DNA of 64,000 bases from Nitrospira japonica (lineage in GTDB: Bacteria > Nitrospirota > Thermodesulfovibrionia > Thermodesulfovibrionales > SM23-35): the NCBI GenBank assembly GCA_020725385.1, contig DYFC01000010.1:23789-87788 (forward strand), in the 5' to 3' direction. Position 1 is the first letter of the stretch, and every line of letters starts with the position of its first letter. The notes under the pieces were generated by a model, which worked only from the letters and a program-made list of their open reading frames with translations, did no database searches and was not told the origin of the DNA. Of this stretch, positions 10,488 through 49,764 are shown piece by piece. A program made the position numbers and the translations under genes.

Positions 10488-12530
<2,043 letters not shown>

Positions 12531-40739: not shown

Positions 40740-41465
40740 CTATTCAATGCGCACGAATTTTTCTTTTGCAACCATCCGGATAAGATTCTCTGATGCAGCC
40801 TCAAGACTAATCTTGTCAAGGGATTCCATGGTAACCATCACAGAATATTCCAGATTATCGAGTACAGGATAGGAACCTATCTTAACGGTCTTAAATCTTT
40901 TCACAATATCATTAAGCAAAGGAGCAACTGTTGATTCTGATTCATTAAGATATATCTTTTTTAAATGTACAACAGGTTCATTGAAAAGCTTTTCTATTGC
41001 AAAGAATTTTTTTCTTAGAAGCTGGGGAATACCCGGAAGAATATAAACGTTTAAAAACTTTATTAAAGGGAAAGTTAAGTTATTGTCATTTATAAGTTCA
41101 GCACCTTCAGGAACTTCAGCCATTTTGAGTTGTTCTGGAGATAATTTGCCTAATTTCAACTCGAGAAATGCTTTTAGAGTTGGATCTATCACTGTTCTAA
41201 CATTGAAAGCTCTAGAAATGCCTTCTATTGTTACGTCATCATGAGTAGGACCGATTCCACCTGATGTGAAGACAAAATCGTATTTTTTTGAGAATTCTCT
41301 CACCTCATTTGCAATTTCATCTACATTATCCGGAATTATAGAAATACGGCTTAACTGAATTCCGTGAGCCCATAATTCCTGAGCCATAAAAAAGGAATTG
41401 TAGTCCTGAACCTTTCCTGTGAGTATCTCGTCTCCGATTATTATTATGCCTGCTGTTTTAGCCAT
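40740..41465 (-). CDS. MoaB/Mog/CinA-N-type molybdopterin-binding-fold protein
   Basis: 241 aa with IIIIGDEILTGKVQDYN and TSGGIGPTHDDVT. Confidence 0.7.
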   Translation of the reverse strand: MAKTAGIIIIGDEILTGKVQDYNSFFMAQELWAHGIQLSRISIIPDNVDEIANEVREFSKKYDFVFTSGGIGPTHDDVTIEGISRAFNVRTVIDPTLKAFLELKLGKLSPEQLKMAEVPEGAELINDNNLTFPLIKFLNVYILPGIPQLLRKKFFAIEKLFNEPVVHLKKIYLNESESTVAPLLNDIVKRFKTVKIGSYPVLDNLEYSVMVTMESLDKISLEAASENLIRMVAKEKFVRIE

Positions 41466-41582: not shown

Positions 41583-42800
41583 TTATGCTTTTTGCTTCTT
41601 TTTCAAATAAAAAATTGCACCTATCCCGGCAATAAGCATAAAGATAAGCATTCCCCATTCTGTCATTGTTGGTATACTTAAAGGATTATTTAAAGGGTCT
41701 TGACAGGTACCATAGTGTATTGGTGTTGGTAATTCTTCTCCCGGAGGAACAGGTGTCTGGGATGTATCAACAGTGCCTGTTTGATTTGTAGCGAATACTA
41801 ATGCTCCACCTGCATTCCATGCACTCGTACGCAAGTCAATATTTCCGATTGCATTAAAAGTTCCGCTTCCCTGTAAACTCATTGCTCCAAATACAACAAC
41901 TTCCTGACTTGTTGCAACTGTCAATTGTCCGGTAGTTGTTATCGCTACATTATAAGGTATAAAAAAGCAAGAAAAGGCACAGATTCCTTCAAATGAAGTG
42001 CCTGGTGGAAGTTCATATGTCCCATCGTTATTATAATCTCTTAATTCTGGATCACCTGCACATGAATTATCGCAGTTTGTATCAGCTTCAAGGACACCAT
42101 CATTGTCACAGTCTCTCAGAAACGGGCCAACATTCATAGGAGTTAGCATATTATTACCTGTACTAAAAGAAGGGACTGGATTAAAGATAGCATCTCGAGC
42201 ATCAATAACTGTTGCAGCATGTGAGTAATCGAAGGCAAGTCCAATAAAAATAGCAATGGTACAGAATCTGTATAACATCTGTAGTGCTTTGTTTAAACCT
42301 GCTTTTGCAAATTCTCTTCTGGTTGTCTGATCATTCATTACTCCCTCACCTGAACCACATCCTTCACAAGGAGGATTGTCGCCAGAACATGTATCAGACC
42401 CTGTACAATTATCAGTTGCACATACATCTGAGTATGTACACCCAGTAGTAACATCAATACGGCAAAGATCAATATTACAGCTTCCGGACTTATCCAAAGT
42501 ACATATATCAGTATTACAGAATGGGCTTTGTTGATTTTGAATATCAAGTTTACATTTATCAATTCCGCATGCATTCGTTATGTCAACCTGGCATGAATCC
42601 GCAGTAGTACAATAATCTTTACCACTACAGGTATCTGAAACAGTACATAAATCAGGATTACAACCATTAACAGCATAAGCATTTGTAGAAAACATTGTTG
42701 CATTAATTTTTCTCAGAGGCGGAAGTTCGGATACAACACCAATGGCTACCATTCCCCCTGTAACTCTATACAACCATCTCAAAAATTCCCTCCTTCTCAT
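41583..42800 (-). CDS. Tat-signal-like, C-x(2,3)-D tandem-repeat protein with internal second signal-like segment and IPTL-CTERM-type anchor (candidate radical-SAM substrate)
   Basis: 405 aa. It starts MRRREFLRW. Residues 47-148 contain 18 Cys arranged as CNPDLCTVSDTCSGKDYCTTADSCQVD...CTGSDTCSGDNPPCEGC. Residues 159-195 read TTRREFAKAG...IAIFIGLAFDYSHA. The C-terminus is IPTMTEWGMLIFMLIAGIGAIFYLKKKQKA. Confidence 0.75.
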   Translation of the reverse strand: MRRREFLRWLYRVTGGMVAIGVVSELPPLRKINATMFSTNAYAVNGCNPDLCTVSDTCSGKDYCTTADSCQVDITNACGIDKCKLDIQNQQSPFCNTDICTLDKSGSCNIDLCRIDVTTGCTYSDVCATDNCTGSDTCSGDNPPCEGCGSGEGVMNDQTTRREFAKAGLNKALQMLYRFCTIAIFIGLAFDYSHAATVIDARDAIFNPVPSFSTGNNMLTPMNVGPFLRDCDNDGVLEADTNCDNSCAGDPELRDYNNDGTYELPPGTSFEGICAFSCFFIPYNVAITTTGQLTVATSQEVVVFGAMSLQGSGTFNAIGNIDLRTSAWNAGGALVFATNQTGTVDTSQTPVPPGEELPTPIHYGTCQDPLNNPLSIPTMTEWGMLIFMLIAGIGAIFYLKKKQKA

Positions 42801-42803
42801 TAA

Positions 42804-44282
42804 CTATCCTCCTTTCTTATCTGCTATGAGATAAGGTTGTGTTGTTTCTTCATAAATATCACTTAAAATATCTTTATCGCTTACATTCAATTCTGAATTT
42901 ATAGCCATCGCACATTCTACCTGATGTTTAATTATTTTGCAACTCTTCTCACATGGAATTTCTATCGAATCATTAGTCATTAAAGCATGATGCCAGCATC
43001 CTCCACCACAAAAATATCTTACCCAGCAATCCTTGCAAGGTTGACGATTGTCTACTGATAGATTAAGTATTTTCTCCTGAAGTCTTAAATCCAGACCATT
43101 TTCAATATCACCCATCCGGTAATCTTCCATACCTACAAAACGATGACAGGGATAAAATCCACCATCTTGTGACAATGCAAAATAAGTTCTAAAAGCCCCG
43201 CAGAAATAAGGACTGCGGTCTCTTACAATCCTTGTCATTCTAATAAACCTTACTAAATTTGTATAATTAAAATATCTGTTTTGTCTAACGCTATCAACTA
43301 AATAAAGGGCAACTGTTTCAATCTGTTTTTTTATTTCCTCAATGTCTTCATCTGTTACTGTTAATTCTCCTGCTCCGGCAACAGATGGTTCGGTATGAAC
43401 TGAACCAAACCCAAGCGAAAGAAGATGGTCTACAACAAGTGGTATATTAACTGTTCCTCTTGGGATTGTAACTCTTGCAGGAACTCTATCAGGTCTTGCA
43501 GAGATAAGACGCTTTATTCCAGAAACGACAAGATCATATGAGCCTTTACCGTTAGGTAATATTCTGTTCAAATTATGTATTTCTTTTGGTCCATCTATTG
43601 ATATTTGACAACCAATATTGTTTTTAACAACAAAATCTACTACTTCGTCATTAAGAAGGATTCCATTGGTAACAAGAGACATACTAACTTTCTTTTCCAT
43701 CTCTTTTTCCTTCTCTCTAACATAAGAAACTATTTCTTTTATGAGTCTAAATTCAAGGAGAGGTTCTCCCCCAAAGAAAATCAGACTTAAATCTTTATGC
43801 TTTCCTGAATTATTAAAAAGAAAATCAACACCCTTCTTTGCTATATCAATTGACATGCTTTTTCTTTTCGCACCATATAAATAAGGCTGTTGCTCCCATT
43901 CCTGCATTCCGTGCGAGCCATAGCAGTAACGGCATCTCATATTGCAGTCATGTGTAACCATAAGTTCAAGATGCCTTAATCCATAGCGCTTTTTTAGTGG
44001 CGGAAGATCCCGAAAATCATTATCATTATTATCAAATATAAACTTTTCTTTTTTTAAATATTTCAAAACTTCTTTTATTTCCCATTTTGGATATTTATCC
44101 TTTAAGGCTCTTAAGGGGTCAGCTTTATTATTTTTTTCAAGAAGCTTTACTATTTCACAAACCAGGGGAGTTACTTCATAGAAAAGCATTGTTTTGACAT
44201 TGAATAGGATATTCTTACCTAAACGATTGAAAAGGTAGTGTTCAACAATCTTATATTCAGTCTGTTTATTAAAGATACCCAT
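42804..44282 (-). CDS. radical SAM/SPASM-domain maturase with N-terminal RRE-like extension
   Basis: Radical-SAM cluster motif HDCNMRCRYCYG, and a SPASM signature (FCGAF...DGGFYPC ... CKDCWVRYFCGGGC ... C). The ~95-110-aa N-terminal extension is consistent with a RiPP recognition element (RRE). The likely start is MGIFNKQ at 44282, because the ORF-track start at 44330 runs into a RayT remnant. Confidence 0.85.
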   Translation of the reverse strand: MGIFNKQTEYKIVEHYLFNRLGKNILFNVKTMLFYEVTPLVCEIVKLLEKNNKADPLRALKDKYPKWEIKEVLKYLKKEKFIFDNNDNDFRDLPPLKKRYGLRHLELMVTHDCNMRCRYCYGSHGMQEWEQQPYLYGAKRKSMSIDIAKKGVDFLFNNSGKHKDLSLIFFGGEPLLEFRLIKEIVSYVREKEKEMEKKVSMSLVTNGILLNDEVVDFVVKNNIGCQISIDGPKEIHNLNRILPNGKGSYDLVVSGIKRLISARPDRVPARVTIPRGTVNIPLVVDHLLSLGFGSVHTEPSVAGAGELTVTDEDIEEIKKQIETVALYLVDSVRQNRYFNYTNLVRFIRMTRIVRDRSPYFCGAFRTYFALSQDGGFYPCHRFVGMEDYRMGDIENGLDLRLQEKILNLSVDNRQPCKDCWVRYFCGGGCWHHALMTNDSIEIPCEKSCKIIKHQVECAMAINSELNVSDKDILSDIYEETTQPYLIADKKGG

Positions 44283-44301
44283 ATTCTTCAGGTTGAAATA
44301 T

Positions 44302-44330
44302 AATATAGCTATTTGACCTAACAAATTCAA
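44302..44330 (-). promoter_or_regulatory. candidate sigma-70 promoter for the radical-SAM operon
   Basis: The minus strand reads TTGAAT-17 nt-TATATT (-35 at 44330-44325, -10 at 44307-44302), about 20 nt upstream of the ATG at 44282. Such matches are common by chance in AT-rich DNA. Confidence 0.3.
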
Positions 44331-44640
44331 TTAAATAAATCAAGCAGGGGCAATTCATGAATTGCCCCTGCACAATCCGTTTCAATACATATAATTCCAT
44401 GAATATGGTTAGGCATAATTATATATTCATCCAGTTCAATATCCGGAAATTGAACTGGAATTTCTATCCAATATTGTTGGGCAATTATCCCATACTCATT
44501 TAACTTCATCCTACTATTAATCACGTCCCCAAATAAATAATCCTTATTTTTGTGCATATTGGAATGAAATACGCTCCTGATTGTGAATAATTATAACCTT
44601 TCAGCCGTATTGATTTTCTTTTATGAATATCTGGATTATA
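44327..44640 (-). pseudogene. truncated, frameshifted RayT / IS200-like Y1 transposase remnant
   Basis: Nucleotide-level homology to 49179-49480. The 76-aa ORF retains ...MPNHIHGIICIE..GAIHELPL but lacks the C-terminal ~90 aa. The N-terminal ~30 codons (44558-44640) are out of frame. Homology stops at the palindrome at 44344-44371. Confidence 0.8.
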
Positions 44641-44809
44641 CACTCCAATTCACTATACCCCTTGCCTTCTCAAGACTGTTTTTGACCAATTCGCACACCG
44701 CCCAATAGACTTCATTCCTTTCATCTTCTGTCAGGCCAAAGATGTTGAATACAATATCGTCAAGGGCTTTACGGTCAGGAAGGGGTTTTGGTTTTTGTTT
44801 ACGGATGGG
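44636..44809 (-). repeat. gene-3'-end fragment, copy A
   Basis: The minus-strand translation is PIRKQKPKPLPDRKALDDIVFNIFGLTEDERNEVYWAVCELVKNSLEKARGIVNWSV*. No upstream gene body is present. Confidence 0.7.
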
Positions 44810-44851
44810 TCAGGTTGGATTGTTGGTGAGTGCTAGATGTATCAACATTGA

Positions 44852-45073
44852 CTATTTCAAAAAGTCTATGAATTCATCTACAGTCAGTTTAGATTGTTCA
44901 ATAATGCTATACAGTGTTCCTTTTTTTAAATCCCGTGAATGAACAGGAATAGTTACTCGCAAAGAGCCTTTTTTAAAAATCTTATGACTGCCTTTTTGTC
45001 TATGCTCTACAAAACCTGCCCTTTGAAGCGCCTTTATAACATCGCTGCTTTTAAGCGCTGGCAATCTGCTCAT
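44852..45073 (-). CDS. hicA: HicA-family mRNA interferase toxin
   Basis: 73 aa: LPALKSSDVIKALQRAGFVEHRQKGSHKIF. Confidence 0.85.
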   Translation of the reverse strand: MSRLPALKSSDVIKALQRAGFVEHRQKGSHKIFKKGSLRVTIPVHSRDLKKGTLYSIIEQSKLTVDEFIDFLK

Positions 45074-45293
45074 ATGGGGATTCCACTTCTACAATAAGAT
45101 GGTCTTCTTCCGGAATTGGAAGGCCATCGGCTTGCAGACTCTCAAGGTAAAGCGCTATGGCCTCTTTAATATTCGCCAATGCCTCGTCATAAGTATCACC
45201 TTCAGATATACAGCCTGGCAAAGAAGGAACCGTTGCGGTATAGCCGCCTTCTTCCTGTGGCTCAAATATAACCTTATAATATTTTTTTGCCAT
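45051..45293 (-). CDS. hicB: HicB-family antitoxin
   Basis: 80 aa: YKVIFEPQEEGGYTATVPSLPGCISEGDTYDEALANIKEAIALYLE. It overlaps hicA. Confidence 0.85.
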   Translation of the reverse strand: MAKKYYKVIFEPQEEGGYTATVPSLPGCISEGDTYDEALANIKEAIALYLESLQADGLPIPEEDHLIVEVESPYEQIASA

Positions 45294-45323
45294 ATATCCT
45301 CCTGATTTTCAATTATACCAGAT

Positions 45324-45431
45324 TCATAAACTCTTAGCCTTATTCAATCTATTAGCGACTAATTCACACACCGACCAGTAAACCTCATTCCTCTCGGCTT
45401 CCGTCAAACCGAGGATGTCGAAGAAGATATC
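45324..45431 (-). repeat. gene-3'-end fragment, copy B
   Basis: The minus-strand translation is DIFFDILGLTEAERNEVYWSVCELVANRLNKAKSL*. Confidence 0.7.
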
Positions 45432-45555
45432 ATAAAAAAATGCATTTGAGAGTCAAAATTGGTATTTCAGCAAGAACACTATTGTGGAAAGTAGAAAGAA
45501 TTATATCGCTATTGTCAATAATTTTTTGTGATCATAGCGTAGCTTACTTAAGGTC

Positions 45556-46008
45556 TCAAGATTTGAACATTAATAATTCATCAAGCAATTCGTTAGAAAC
45601 ATAAAAACCCTTATCTTTAAGTTCTTGAGCCTTTTTAAAAGCGCTCTCTATAAGTCCAAGTTTTTCGGCTTTTAACAAAACACCAATACTACCACTAATA
45701 GACAATCCTAAATCTTCTGCAACCTTTCGAGCTTTTAAATCATCAATTAATGCTCTAAAATTAGTCTCATAGGCAAGGGCTATAACCTCAGATTCACCTC
45801 TTCCTAAGTTTAAATTACGCATTAAGACATTGATTAATCTGCTTTCAACCTTTCGCACTAATAAGCAATCAATATTGATTTCGCCAAATTCTTTGACCAC
45901 AGCATCAGGCAAAATAATCTCCTTATAGATTTTACAGAGAATTTGTAAGAGATCAATTCGTTCGAAGGCTATTAAAACAGAGGCATCAACAATGACTGCT
46001 TCAGGCAT
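45556..46008 (-). CDS. DUF3368/PIN-like nuclease-fold toxin
   Basis: The likely start is MPEAVIVDASVLIAF, overlapping the antitoxin stop by 8 nt. It pairs with a UPF0175 protein as in the known DUF3368/UPF0175 modules. Confidence 0.7.
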   Translation of the reverse strand: MPEAVIVDASVLIAFERIDLLQILCKIYKEIILPDAVVKEFGEINIDCLLVRKVESRLINVLMRNLNLGRGESEVIALAYETNFRALIDDLKARKVAEDLGLSISGSIGVLLKAEKLGLIESAFKKAQELKDKGFYVSNELLDELLMFKS

Positions 46009-46222
46009 TCGATAGTTCTTTCTCAAGATTCAGTTTTTGAAACTTTATTGGAGCTATCCCCTTATGCAGCAATATCTCAACAAATGCCTTTTCAGAATAC
46101 CCGGCTATCTCAGATGCTTTACCAAGAGATATTAAATCTTCGTCAAGAAGCTTTATGGCAAGCAATAGTTTTAATTCTTCTTCCGGTATATTTAGCTCAG
46201 GTATAGTTAGTGATTTGCCCAT
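46001..46222 (-). CDS. UPF0175-family antitoxin
   Basis: 73 aa: EELKLLLAIKLLDEDLISLGKASEIAGYSEKAFVEILLHKGI. Confidence 0.7.
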   Translation of the reverse strand: MGKSLTIPELNIPEEELKLLLAIKLLDEDLISLGKASEIAGYSEKAFVEILLHKGIAPIKFQKLNLEKELSNA

Positions 46223-46372
46223 TTATACCCTTCTTTCTTTAAAAGAATTATAACATAGCCCTTCGAAAGAAGACATCATGCAGTAACCCGTGTATCCCAT
46301 CTGCGCATCTTCTCAAGCTCCTTCAATATCTTGGCCTCGGAGATGCCTTCTTTCCGGAATATAACTAAATCT

Positions 46373-47373
46373 TCACGTATTACTTTTTGGCAAAACATTT
46401 TTAGCAATTTCTAAAATCTTAATATTCCCTTCGCTTCCATCTTTTGACGAATCTATGTAACCAGTAGAAGTAGTGCTGAATACAGCTTTTGCAGCTTCGA
46501 GAACAACAGTATCCTTAATTTGTACATCCTTTGCAGCAGAAGAGAAAGCCTGAAGGGTTTGAATGCTTAATGCTCTATGCTGATAAACTGCCGATTGATG
46601 CATCAACGCTCTGTAGATTTTACCGCACCAAATAGTAGCGGCAGGATACCAAGAACAACTATTTTTGTTGTAATTTTCTGCCAAATTTGACCTTGGTCTA
46701 AACCTGCCTCTGTAAAATACCAAAGGAAAGTAGCTGCAACTACTGTAATAACCCCAAGAAATGCTGTGACTTTAAGCCATATTTGGGCTGTCTCTTTCAA
46801 TACAGAAGCTTCTTTTTTAAAATCCTCTGTAAATACAGCAGCACCGGCTGATGCCGATGCTTCACGGGCTTTTATTATAATATCATCTATTTCCTTCCCC
46901 TTTTGATCTATCTTGGTCTTAGCTTCTTCAACCAATATCTCAGCTTCCTTTACAGATGTTGTCAGTGATTCAACGTTGCGGGCTACATCGCCTTTCTGAT
47001 ATGCAAGGAAAGGAATCCAAGGAGATGCAGCAGTATAAAGCGAATCTGCCCGATTTTGAATCTGGGAAATAAATTGATCTCTTTGCTGAGCCGGCGAGCC
47101 AGATTCTATTGAGAATTTATTAATGGTATCAAAAAGTCCGTTGATTTGCTGTATCTCATTTGTAATGGAACTAATGGCATTTATGGTAAGCAACTCAACT
47201 GGCAGCACTTTTAGATAATTAACTATTGAATATATACGGTCAATATCACTACGAACATCCTCAAGTGTAATAGTTCCCCACTCTGGCCTGGCAATCAGTT
47301 TTTCTTTATCAAATTGCAAAAATTGTTCAATTTGTTTTTTCAACCCATTAAGCTGCTGTGAATTTCTTGACAT
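46373..47373 (-). pseudogene. two-TM membrane protein of unknown function, apparently frameshifted
   Basis: The 256-aa ORF (46603-47373) ends inside its second TM helix (...KIVVLGILPLLFGAVKSTER*). A second frame (46373-46723) continues ...AATIWCGKIYRALMHQSAVYQHRALSIQTLQAFSSAAKD... for about 110 protein-like codons. The two overlap over 46603-46723. Confidence 0.55.
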
Positions 47374-47405
47374 ATTTTTACCCCTCCTCGTTTATAAAAC
47401 ACAAA

Positions 47406-48491
47406 TTAACTCTTCTCCCATTCAAACCTCTTTTTTAGATCATTACAGTGACTATGAGGAATTTTATTGTCATGTTGGAGTCTGCCAACGACTATACCAG
47501 CGGCGATACCGAGTTCAGAGGCGAATTTTTGTATAGCTGCCTTACTGTATCTTCCATTCCGTATGAATTGACTGTATTGTTTCGGCGGAATTAGAAAATC
47601 AGAGGCAAACCTGTCAGCCTTGTCTTCCTTGGAGTTATTAGCATCACACTCAATAAATACCTCTTTCTTTCCATGCATGAGTATATGACCTGCTTCATGG
47701 AAGAAACTGAACCATAATTGATCGTCGCTTTTATAGCGAAGACTCAATTGAATGACAGCCTTGTTAGGATTTGTCCACCATGTCGCACCCGATGCCCTGA
47801 TTCTAGGAATCTCAGGCACAAAGGCAACGGCAACACCTGCATCAGCACATAAACGAATAACTTCCTGTTGAAAGTGCTCAGGCGGTTTAACAGTAAGCTG
47901 ACGGACATTTAAAAGCGCATTCTTGAACTTCGATGCATCAAAAGGCTTGCAACTGATATTCCGAGCTGTCAGTTCACCCATCCTAAGCCATGATGCAACA
48001 GCATAAGGGTCGTTTTGGAAAACTTTTGATGTTCGATAGGAAACCCGGGCGCCCATCCATCTTGTTTCCCATTGTTCAGGAGAAGCGACGCCAAAGAAAT
48101 TTAAGACAGCTTGAAGCTGCTGAACCATGCCTGAATGTTTCTTAACCCAACCCATCTTGATAAGCACATTCAAAGGCATTTTCTTCAGCCAGTTTATCTG
48201 CCGCTGCAACCTCTTTTGCTCATTTAGTCTTGCCAGTGTCTCCTGATAATTACGCTCCAGATTATTCCAGAAGCTTGCAGGAATACCGAGGACCCTTTCC
48301 AGTTGTAACGCAGTTTCCGGTGTTATAGCAGCCTTTCCCTTAATGATTTCATTAATTGTCTTCTTCGGTCTGCCTGTGCGTTCTGCAAGCTCTGCCTGAG
48401 ACATTCCAATTGCTTCCATGGTTTCAAGAAGCGTTTCCCCGGGGGGCACAGCGTAATCAGGCATAAACTGATTTTTTATATTTTTACTCAT
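47406..48491 (-). CDS. HigA-like XRE HTH fused to ImmA/IrrE-type zinc metallopeptidase domain
   Basis: HTH (MSQAELAERTGRPKKTINEIIKGK) plus HEXXH (FFHEAGHILMH). The likely start is MSKNIKN at 48491, in an ATGAGTAA overlap with the upstream toxin stop. Confidence 0.8.
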   Translation of the reverse strand: MSKNIKNQFMPDYAVPPGETLLETMEAIGMSQAELAERTGRPKKTINEIIKGKAAITPETALQLERVLGIPASFWNNLERNYQETLARLNEQKRLQRQINWLKKMPLNVLIKMGWVKKHSGMVQQLQAVLNFFGVASPEQWETRWMGARVSYRTSKVFQNDPYAVASWLRMGELTARNISCKPFDASKFKNALLNVRQLTVKPPEHFQQEVIRLCADAGVAVAFVPEIPRIRASGATWWTNPNKAVIQLSLRYKSDDQLWFSFFHEAGHILMHGKKEVFIECDANNSKEDKADRFASDFLIPPKQYSQFIRNGRYSKAAIQKFASELGIAAGIVVGRLQHDNKIPHSHCNDLKKRFEWEKS

Positions 48492-48822
48492 GTGTGTCCT
48501 CCACACCAATAATTTTAATTATCGTCACTTTAGTCCAATCAAGCCCTCCATCCAGCTTTTTGGGTATCGGGTTGTTTGCGGGCTCAAAAATAAGTCGATA
48601 AGGATAGTCAAGATCTACAGACAGTTGTCCTTTTCTATTTCCTTTCAATTCATGGCATCGAGCCTTGGGAAGATTGCGCAACTCTTCAAGCGCATTAGCA
48701 GCAGCAAATTCGACTAACCTTCTTTTTAAAAGCTTAGCTCTTTTAGTGCCGAATCTTTTAATCATAAGATTCTCATTGTTGCACTTTTTCTCAAGTTTGG
48801 TTGTCTTAAATAGAATAACCAC
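48484..48822 (-). CDS. HigB-like (plasmid maintenance killer, RelE/ParE superfamily) toxin
   Basis: 112 aa: ...RCHELKGNRKGQLSVDLDYPYRLIFEP..., typical of the HigB-like family. Confidence 0.75.
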   Translation of the reverse strand: MVILFKTTKLEKKCNNENLMIKRFGTKRAKLLKRRLVEFAAANALEELRNLPKARCHELKGNRKGQLSVDLDYPYRLIFEPANNPIPKKLDGGLDWTKVTIIKIIGVEDTHE

Positions 48823-48875
48823 AGATTAACTTTTTGTCAAGATAATTATTAACCCTTAGGGTAAATGATTTTTCT

Positions 48876-48944
48876 TTACACACTCTTTATCTCCTCAAGA
48901 CCGTTCTTGACTAATTCACATACTGCCCAGTAAACTTCATTTAA
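48876..48944 (-). repeat. gene-3'-end fragment, copy C (shortest)
   Basis: The minus-strand translation is (L)NEVYWAVCELVKNGLEEIKSV*. It abuts the RayT stop codon at 48941-48943. Confidence 0.7.
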
Positions 48945-49480
48945 CTTTTATGAAGACCATAATATTCGTCCAATTCCCATTTCAAAGGATTGGTAAGAAT
49001 ATATTTCCTGATCGTGTTTAATTCTTGTTCATTTCGTATAATGTGTTCATAATAATTACGTTGCCAGACAGGATTGCTGCGTGTATTACGTATTTGGTTG
49101 ATTTGTTTTGCGGATTGCATTTTAAACCACCCAATAATTTTTGGTAACAACATCTTTCTACGTTGTCTTTTATATTCATGTAGGGGCAATTCATGAATTG
49201 CCCCTACAAAATTCGTTTCAATACATATAATTCCATGAACGTGGTTTGGCATCACAATAAATTCATCAATGGCCGTATTCGGAAAATGTCGTGGTATTTT
49301 GTTCCAATATTGTTGTACAACGGTCCCCATAATATTTAATTGCATCTCCCCGTTGGTTATATCTCCAAACAAACATTCCCTGTCCTTTGTGCATATCGTC
49401 ACAAAATACGCCCCTGCCTGTGAATAATCATAACCTTTCAGGCGGATTGATCTTCTTTTATGAATGTCTGGATTATACAC
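48941..49480 (-). mobile_element. REP-associated tyrosine transposase (RayT, IS200/IS605 Y1 family), apparently intact
   Basis: 179 aa with a GTG start. Motifs: YDYSQAGAYFVTICT, HUH motif MPNHVHGII, and the catalytic-Tyr region QRNYYEHIIRNE. Confidence 0.85.
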
Positions 49481-49488
49481 TCCACCTT

Positions 49489-49655
49489 CTACACACTCCT
49501 TGCCTTTTCAAGACTGTTCTTGACCGATTCGCAGACTGCCCAATAGATGCAAACAGCTTGTCTTTTGGATATCCTAAGGAAATAAATAGCTTAAAAATTT
49601 TTTCGGGAGAGGTTAATTCAGGAACAAAATCCTGTGCAATATTTTTTATTTGCAT
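49489..49655 (-). repeat. gene-3'-end fragment, copy D (frameshifted)
   Basis: The last 20 codons (49489-49548) read IYWAVCESVKNSLEKARSV*. The upstream part is the 60-aa track ORF (49473-49655) in another frame. Confidence 0.65.
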
Positions 49656-49764
49656 ATATATTTGTACCAGTAATAATACCCAAAATTCAAGTTCTCGAAG
49701 TTATTCCAAATTCAGAAAATATATGTTTAACATATTACAGAAGTATTGGGGGGTTTAAAAAAAT

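Follow-up and report, generated by a model that had tools for sequence, protein, structure and literature searches.

Integrative elements that enter the 3' ends of genes, bring replacement ends with them and accumulate in tandem are well known; e14 and phage 21 in the icd gene of Escherichia coli and the islands at tRNA and tmRNA genes belong to this class. In the polymorphic toxin systems, orphan modules (cdiA-CT/cdiI and rhs-CT) lie downstream of the main toxin gene. Among restriction-modification (RM) systems, "insertion with long target duplication" has been described, in which an insert without a mobility gene is flanked by direct target repeats of more than 30 bp (Furuta et al. 2010, PMC2853133). 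Type-2 "BREX-related" systems pair an HKD-endoDNase-SNF2 fusion with a large N6-adenine methyltransferase (PMC12839542). Here we analyse a locus that invites comparison with these systems. It lies in a 64,000-nucleotide (nt) stretch of a Nitrospira japonica assembly (GCA_020725385.1, contig DYFC01000010.1, positions 23,789 to 87,788 of the forward strand; hereafter the window), where four diverged copies (A to D) of one gene 3' end punctuate an islet of small toxin-antitoxin (TA) and transposase genes. These copies, called tails below, derive from a type IIG-like methyltransferase gene, the parent, and arrays of the same build stand behind intact parents in other genomes (loci numbered L001 and onwards).

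The identity of the parent is apparent from a 1,288-amino acid (aa) open reading frame (ORF) on the 105-kb contig L001 (5104–8970), which starts with MDIANHVQSIIPKTDSAVKVYELFRSLGYQKDKI and ends in exactly the tail. Its N-terminus is matched by the window ORF at 49655, which starts with MQIKNIAQDFVPELTSPEKIFKLFISLGYPKDKL (Table 1). Pfam places Eco57I (3e-34) and MmeI_Mtase (7e-11) domains in the L001 protein and the same domains in P0108 and P0113, and the PADLOC model REase_MTase_IIG matches the parent at 6e-47. The parent is an N6-adenine methyltransferase of the Eco57I/MmeI type, type IIG-like and about 1,200–1,300 aa in size, and the tail is its extreme C-terminus, in line with the resemblance noted in the initial annotation of the window. 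Pfam reported no nuclease domain in the parent polypeptide, and a PDB sequence search with the parent gave no match. In the normal arrangement the 3.9-kb parent forms an operon with a 3.1-kb gene encoding a 1,047-aa HKD(PLD)-SNF2 nuclease-helicase, and cleavage may perhaps be supplied by this partner.

When tail A was used as query in a word-indexed protein search, all matches were short ORFs, 81 in number (clusters at 90% identity) and 49–86 aa long, and no parent was among them. Their N-termini are unrelated, and they share the core ...ELGINPxxPIREQKPNPLPDRKALDDIVFDILGLTEDERNEVYWAVCELVKNRLEKARSV*; such fragments are therefore common in metagenomes. The view suggested by that search, that no full-length homologue exists, was overturned by genomic context and by an exhaustive search of a tail profile against 1.84 billion proteins. 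This search returned 1,126 clusters, and among the best 150 matches, of up to about 1,300 aa, the tail lies nearly always at the C-terminus or a few residues from it, so that large proteins do end in the tail. A scan of one genome per species yielded 287 loci in bacteria and archaea, including Nitrospirota, Candidatus (Ca.) Brocadia, Desulfobacterota, Aquificota, WOR-3, Caldiserica, DPANN archaea and Methanophagales. Pfam and NCBIfam gave no meaningful match to the bare tails or to a 60-aa ORF, the tail is absent from IMG/VR contigs and GenBank phages, and a plasmid search with it gave only two matches, both distant. There is little doubt that the methyltransferase and its HKD(PLD)-SNF2 partner form a defence system of RM-like type and that this system is transferred from phylum to phylum. 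In the intact parent ORFs of L001 (5104–8970) and L043 (495–4391), GC-rich stretches are also inserted in frame; they encode PLSRGVRGVF, PLPQGARE, GEGKGEG and peptides of this sort and look like small repeat elements tolerated within coding sequence.

All four copies in the window are real. A repeat search of the window returned a single direct-repeat family of four members (53 nt, 68–89% identity; copies aligned with MAFFT), and an nhmmer scan with a nucleotide profile of 39 intact parents matched every copy (E 2e-49 to 2e-9). The translations agree with the shared C-terminal peptide that the initial annotation had read from the minus strand. Its impression that the copies differ in a largely synonymous manner is correct, since in a Nei-Gojobori count the proportion of synonymous differences between them (pS, 0.39–0.93) is above that of nonsynonymous differences (pN, 0.10–0.25). 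The duplicated unit that it had described, D with an intact RayT gene and A with a truncated one, is seen as two collinear blocks (44340–44647 against 49176–49484, 74–87% identity). Copy A is longer than first described, extending to the HicA stop at about 44851–44863; close to its end it is disrupted by an in-frame stop and by the deletion of 1 nt. The statement that no gene body precedes any copy needs qualification for D, which has the first 35 parent codons on its 5' side, and for B, which has the 5' stub of the partner helicase gene there.

Outside the window, the gap between parent and helicase is tight (-1 to 80 nt) in L048, L063, L079, L030 and L039, and is filled with 0.5–4.7 kb of TA and defence genes in 17 other loci, including L001 and L043. 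The genes in the gaps include HigB with HTH/M78, UPF0175 with PIN, HicAB, DUF4258 with DUF2283, BrnT/A and ParE, and further AbiE-like pairs, DUF3800, DUF559 and RayT. Extra tails lie in the filled gaps of L001 (two), L043 (three), L085 (two), L011, L017, L062, L037, L009, L025, L010/L015 and L077, and arrays of the order cassette, fragment, cassette stand behind intact parents in L001, L043, L037, L009, L025, L010 and L085. The array-bearing genomes belong to Nitrospirota, Ca. Brocadia, Desulfobacteraceae and Caldiserica. Pieces of the window islet recur behind intact parents as well, namely copy C with HigBA (L014), the UPF0175-PIN genes (L005), the allele of copy B (L043) and the tail-RayT pair (L043 and Brocadia). 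A longer orphan, comprising the C-terminal 349 aa of a parent, is present in the array of L086 (7239–8288); this array sits behind a divergent methyltransferase whose own C-terminus is without the typical tail.

Tails within one array are 0.63–0.89 identical, their best matches are mostly in other genomes, and array neighbours are no closer to each other than to foreign tails. For 29 fragments compared with the nearest foreign parent the ratio pN/pS is 0.17, against 0.14 between parents. Nearly all of the divergence of the fragments therefore arose within working genes, and each fragment is the relic of a different allele. The four fragments of the window are almost certainly 3' ends left behind by alleles of this methyltransferase gene that once were functional, at least four different ones. 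This bears on the possibility of an in-situ insertion with long target duplication, in which a cassette enters the resident tail and the downstream copy decays. Such an event would produce the same geometry as the class known for RM systems (PMC2853133), also without a mobility gene. However, the flanking copies are only 63–89% identical and are not each other's nearest relatives, and their differences are mainly synonymous, which indicates that both evolved within working genes. With diverged, once-functional alleles on both sides, duplication in place followed by decay is ruled out, and we hold this explanation at large to be quite improbable.

The fragments might also be functional small genes, whose free tail peptides could, for example, modulate the helicase-nuclease. 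Gene callers predict ORFs of 49–86 aa over many of them, some from the start of the conserved block, and their amino acid conservation is high. However, the N-termini of these ORFs are unrelated read-through sequence, there is no usable start in any of the four window copies, A and D are disrupted, and the islet retains only a 5' stub of the helicase. Fragments in general have no conserved start, and several, also outside the window, are truncated, frameshifted or decayed or carry stops; they are therefore not intact small genes. We consider this explanation extremely improbable.

The last codons of the tail, GCA AGG AGT GTG TGA (for example, at 49489–49506 of the window), form a Shine-Dalgarno sequence (AAGGAG), and an ORF starts within 15 nt after the tail in about half of all tails, parents and fragments alike, often overlapping the stop. 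This arrangement suggests translational coupling of the downstream gene. The Shine-Dalgarno sequence was rejected as a general reason for the persistence of fragments because HigB and HicB in the window have their own signals. A promoter scan found nothing convincing inside the tails.

How the arrays were built can be approached from the edges of the fragments. All share the stop codon as their right edge, and their left edges fall at about q-6 to q60 of the last 69 codons of the parent (roughly the last 230 nt) and only rarely further upstream. This zone coincides with a jump in nucleotide conservation at about q10. Among the 39 parents the nucleotide identity rises from about 0.40–0.46 to about 0.64–0.75 at codon 10 of the last 69, and across bacteria and archaea conservation is much higher in the last ~60 codons than in the remainder of the gene. 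Since the left edges are variable and there is no fixed att length, the fragments are not discrete site-specific elements.

Several junctions are shared between loci. L084, L085 and L058 have the same junction between the end of a ParE gene and the left part of the fragment, and have different right parts and different downstream cassettes (HicBA, a gene of unknown function and HigBA). A junction between the terminator of a DUF559 gene and codon 36 (q36) is common to L001, L085 and L011, and the end of a DUF2283-type gene is followed by a fragment starting at codons 8–12 in L001, L017 and L043 and, in decayed form, in L011. Thus the preceding cassette and the left part of a fragment move together, as do, in these cases, the right part and the following cassette, which is the outcome expected of crossovers within tails.

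These features can be combined into a mechanism in which the methyltransferase-helicase junction would act as a hotspot where TA, Abi, RayT and other small cassettes gather. The last ~60 codons, with about 70–75% identity against about 40–45% upstream, would be the only stretch similar enough in DNA to pair between diverged alleles, and incoming DNA would for this reason anchor on the tail block. An incoming parent 3' end with its cassette would pair with the resident gene over the conserved block, and the other end of the incoming DNA would join illegitimately within or next to the block. The incoming tail would complete the gene, and the resident tail would be pushed downstream as a left-truncated fragment. 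Homologous recombination between tails could then shuffle tail-flanked cassettes between arrays. Later deletions would erode the large genes, and the addictive TA modules would stay because their loss is harmful. Joining of this kind, homology-facilitated illegitimate recombination, is known from transformation studies. Accretion of the arrays by recombination anchored on the conserved tail is, in our judgement, an evenly balanced proposition, and towards the statement as a whole, the identity of the fragments together with the accretion mechanism, we lean slightly.

The initial annotation had proposed that small elements integrated serially into the 3' end of one target gene, each bringing a replacement 3' end. 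As a pattern this stands, given the arrays behind intact parents and the distinct alleles; discrete site-specific integration and a resident target gene do not, and some junctions, those of the helicase stub with B and of the parent N-terminus with D, are plain deletion scars. These two at least read better as deletions than as insertions, and they count against accretion. Several other points do so too. Many left edges lie 0–45 nt from the preceding ORF stop, which plain illegitimate joining does not predict, so that extra compaction or selection is needed in the model. The illegitimate joining step is suggested only by the variable edges, and there is no near-identical pair of genomes differing by one cassette with breakpoints in tails. 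A tail identity of 63–89% is low for efficient RecA-dependent exchange. In addition, the window covers only 64 kb of the genome, and an intact parent may exist elsewhere in it.

The deletion scars are what would be expected if whole systems accumulate one behind the other, for instance when a circular copy enters a resident copy by Campbell-type integration, illegitimate deletions then trimming the large genes and TA addiction sparing the modules. Fusions of a parent N-terminus to a tail, with other junctions, are also present in P0031 and P0080, and helicase stubs or internally deleted helicases in L062, L058 and L017. Truncated cassette genes occur within the arrays of L043 and L001, and tandem systems would account for fragments that look like once-functional alleles. 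However, no helicase stub precedes any fragment in L043 or L001, from the intact parent to the intact helicase. Random deletion ends should mostly hit the helicase and the body of the parent, given the lengths of these genes, and instead the left edges concentrate in the last ~230 nt. They often abut the preceding small ORF, and the same types of junction are found in several loci with different neighbours, which cassette exchange explains better. Piling up of whole systems therefore appears rather unlikely as the origin of the arrays, although tail-anchored accretion and trimming of tandem systems probably both contribute.

A dedicated site-specific recombinase of the integron or phage type, acting in trans with the tail as its attachment site, would leave the fragments as att scars. 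The geometry of ORF, repeat and ORF is like that of integron arrays and of islands at gene 3' ends. In L088 (1387–1647 and 8859–9938; also in L089) a tail fragment edges a block of ~8 kb with a primase (Toprim/AAA_25), HTH_17 and, at its end, a tyrosine integrase, whose ORF matches the tail codons for PLPDRKAL at 20 of 22 nt; this match may be due to chance. However, the ORFs of the islet in the window include no integrase, and neither do the genes called within and beside the arrays of L001, L085 and L086, the gap ORFs of L043 having only been read by eye. The lengths of the fragments vary, and the variation of the tails follows the third-codon-position pattern of coding sequence. RNAalifold, run on 20 diverse tails, found 0 conserved pairs, and a hypothesis of attC-like sites or hairpins in the tails was rejected on this consensus folding. 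The absence of an integrase and of a shared tail structure, together with the variation at third codon positions, makes a site-specific or hairpin mechanism unlikely, and a dedicated recombinase we consider very improbable.

Transposition raises a related question, as the initial annotation had suggested that the fragments double as ends of an IS200/IS605-like transposon. In this explanation the tails would be IS200/IS605-like or REP-like (repetitive extragenic palindrome) ends, with RayT recognising TCAAGA-N4-TCTTGA and mobilising the cassettes. The hairpin is indeed present in C, D and, with one mismatch, A; a site at 40801, unrelated to the tails, is the only other place in the window that matches it with one mismatch. 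D and C, both with the hairpin, flank RayT in direct orientation. RayT lies immediately behind a tail in four or five lineages overall (L043, L010/L015 and L067 in addition to the window), and some junctions fall exactly at RayT-type palindromes. However, the hairpin is confined to the three window copies, where it depends on an R to S/G codon change peculiar to them. It is absent from the RayT-adjacent tails of L043 and L015 (Ca. Brocadia) and from the family consensus, and no RayT gene was called or seen in most arrays. The palindrome that flanks RayT in Brocadia, TGTAG...CAATTCATGAATTG...CTACA, is moreover unlike the tail hairpin. That tails serve as transposon ends is extremely improbable.

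A perfect GTAG-tagged palindrome of 30 nt (TGTAGGGGCAATTCA followed by TGAATTGCCCCTACA) lies inside the RayT ORF of the window at 49179–49208, where it encodes GAIHELPL. Its second copy, of 28 nt (44344–44371), marks exactly where the RayT remnant, and with it the whole islet, ends; no copies of the end or REP sequence were found outside the islet within the window. In Ca. Brocadia (L010, L015 and L050) the palindrome core occurs 3–7 times per locus of 10–20 kb, on both sides of RayT, inside RayT and in frame within the methyltransferase ORF. The GTAG-tagged palindrome, rather than the tail hairpin, is likely the cognate hairpin of RayT, as far as can be predicted from sequence. The junctions exactly at such palindromes are three (the islet end at 44344–44371, the REP joined to codon 26 (q26) in L015, and P0079), and RayT/REP activity or fragility of the palindromes may have made some of the joins. 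RayT/REP is not the general mechanism of the arrays.

Comparison with close relatives, as recommended in the initial annotation, shows that the islet is foreign. The flanks are 86–88% identical in nucleotides to the syntenic loci L091 and L092, and the segment from ~44344 to 49680, an islet of ~5.3 kb, is missing in its entirety from both. No tail, parent or helicase is present in these two loci, which means that the methyltransferase gene was at no time resident in this lineage. The islet is horizontally acquired; the parent came with it and has since been deleted to 35 and 19 codons, the junction at D being an internal deletion of about 1,200 codons. The window holds an end state, in which both large genes of the imported islet are stubs and the four tails are left. 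It is a decayed, imported islet of defence and TA genes, ordinary in kind. At the empty site of L091, the peptidase gene is followed by 142 nt and then by a radical-SAM gene; this site (10941–11084) contains four GTAG motifs and no palindrome, against ~0.5 per strand expected by a rough estimate. The radical-SAM/SPASM gene and a Cys-rich 405-aa gene (41583–44330 in the window) are present in L091 and absent in L092, so that gene content behind the M1-type peptidase gene varies even where the islet is lacking.

Table 1. Features of the window islet, with matches to the tail and to the associated palindrome (positions are those of the window unless a locus is named)
Feature	Position	Strand	Evidence or identity
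Parent N-terminal stub, 35 codons and ~20–25 nt of 5' leader	49551–49655	-	47% aa identity to L001 parent, E 2e-10
Copy D, last 19 parent codons and stop	49489–49548	-	E 4e-13
RayT-like Y1 (HUH) transposase, intact gene	48941–49480	-	Pfam Y1_Tnp 3e-7
Copy C, last 21 codons and stop	48876–48941	-	Repeat and profile match
HigB-like toxin, HTH_3 + Peptidase_M78 (ImmA/IrrE-like) partner, frameshifted membrane/coiled-coil gene	46373–48822	-	Pfam
UPF0175 antitoxin-like and PIN-like (DUF3368) genes	45556–46222	-	Pfam
HKD-SNF2 helicase 5' stub, about 35 codons, frameshifted	45432–45535	-	14/20 aa identical to L043 helicase N-terminus, E 3e-8
Copy B, last 35 codons and stop, allele ...ELVANRLNKAKSL	45324–45431	-	E 2e-25
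HicB antitoxin and HicA toxin	44852–45293	-	Pfam
Copy A, about 66 tail codons, from HicA stop	44654–44851	-	L043 parent q1233–1298; E 2e-49
RayT remnant, N-terminal part	44344–44643	-	Repeat match to intact RayT; empty-site alignment with L091
Direct-repeat family members	44657–44709, 45330–45382, 48882–48934, 49495–49547	-	Direct-repeat search
Profile match, copy A	44655–44863	-	E 2e-49
Profile match, copy B	45324–45433	-	E 2e-25
Profile match, copy C	48877–48941	-	E 2e-9
Profile match, copy D	49490–49547	-	E 4e-13
Duplicated unit, part 1	44340–44543 and 49176–49379		74% identity
Duplicated unit, part 2	44549–44647 and 49386–49484		87% identity
Brocadia palindromes, examples	L015 10209–10238, 10529–10560, 10870–10901		

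The N-terminal stub of the parent forms the left edge of the islet; it matches the L043 parent in tblastn (q9–46), and its DNA is 73% identical to L043 510–628. Copy D is fused to it out of frame. The left edge of copy C is the stop codon of RayT, and homology to L014, L036, L058 and L005, where an intact or near-intact parent is followed by HigB, ends exactly at 48941/48942. Identity to L014 is about 93% in the cassette and 77% in copy C, a difference that is suggestive only of a breakpoint at the stop codon of C, the copy being 63 nt long. Over 2,581 nt the HigB block has 91.6% identity to L014 10136–12712, which lies directly behind the intact parent there. A frameshift divides the membrane/coiled-coil gene of the block (46373–47373) into parts of 256 aa and 116 aa, and the counterpart of this gene in L014 (11701–12705; 334 aa) is intact. 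The UPF0175-PIN block is 87% identical in nucleotides to L005 11606–12380, between an intact parent and its helicase, and together with the helicase start it matches L005 just before the intact helicase. By blastn the helicase stub, which is joined directly to copy B, matches the starts of the helicase genes in L001, L014, L008 and L002. Copy B carries an allele (...ANRLNKAKSL) that is 87% identical in nucleotides to the tail of the intact L043 parent. The order of B, HicBA and A is collinear with L084 in another genome (79% over 800 nt), and an identical HicB protein is encoded there (GCA_053494755.1), again behind a tail fragment. In an exact-sequence look-up, HicA and HicB were found only on contigs of 1–1.4 kb, and the RayT and SurA-like genes of the window were not on record. 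The RayT remnant, ending exactly at the second palindrome copy, forms the right edge of the islet. The cassettes of the islet consist of adjacent small toxin and antitoxin genes (HigB-like with HTH_3/Peptidase_M78, UPF0175 with PIN-like/DUF3368, and HicB with HicA) and are predicted from their domains to be type II TA modules.

The arrays offer a case, recurring across phyla, of a defence operon that gathers and exchanges cassettes for TA and abortive infection with no recombinase dedicated to the task, the conserved end of one of its own genes being the proposed shared homology. A tentative extension, which we regard as less likely than not, is that the 3' block of ~180 nt is a portable attachment sequence independent of any dedicated recombinase, tail-flanked cassettes being excised, and integrated into any genome with the system, by host homologous recombination. 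The junction between methyltransferase and helicase would in that case amount to an integron that lacks its integrase, and the arrays would ratchet upward through addiction, as loss of a cassette kills the cell and loss of a large gene does not. If the recombination model is true, tails could serve as markers by which cassette hotspots and new small defence genes are found in metagenomic data. The survival of TA islets beyond the systems that brought them would be explained in part by TA addiction. For annotation, many "hypothetical proteins" of 50–90 aa in Nitrospirota and other metagenome-assembled genomes are gene-tail relics.

We found no description of these arrays in the literature searched, the coverage of which was limited. 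As in the e14/icd type, an incoming 3' end that is diverged, mostly synonymously, keeps the target gene intact, displaced 3' fragments punctuate the array, and repeated events lead to tandem accretion. A mainly synonymous replacement 3' end, expected of that type, is found here (pS 0.39–0.93 against pN 0.10–0.25; pN/pS 0.17). Unlike that type, the tail arrays are without an integrase (in the islet and the called loci) and without a constant att length, the inserts are TA/defence cassettes of 0.6–3.5 kb, the target is itself a mobile defence gene, and the exchange is inferred to proceed by homologous and illegitimate recombination. Long direct repeats, the absence of a mobility gene and an RM context are shared with the insertions with long target duplication (PMC2853133), whose repeats, however, are nearly identical and whose RM system is the insert, whereas here the repeats come from diverged alleles and the target is the RM-like gene itself. 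With integron arrays and clusters of attC sites lacking an integron integrase (CALINs), the tail arrays have in common compact small cassettes, often of TA or defence genes, a recurring element of 60–200 nt and the presence of the same cassette in different arrays. However, no IntI was found, and the repeat is a coding relic of varying length without an attC-like fold.

Like the cdiA-CT and rhs-CT orphans, the tails are fragments of a main gene that lie downstream of it with small gene pairs and are able to recombine with it; those orphans encode alternative functional C-terminal domains, whereas the tails repeat the same conserved end and provide no alternative function. The "BREX-related" systems (PMC12839542; PADLOC model HKD+Snf2, C3a139) share the HKD-SNF2 fusion and the large N6-adenine methyltransferase. 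They add a DUF499 ATPase and DUF3780, neither of which is among the gene calls of L001, L085 and L086, where no targeted search for them was made. In architecture, the tail arrays are thus closest to 3'-end accretion, to long target duplication and, superficially, to integrons, and they differ from each of these in its defining features. The window islet is ordinary in this comparison; the new part is the recurrence, across phyla, of tail-punctuated arrays behind a type IIG-like methyltransferase.

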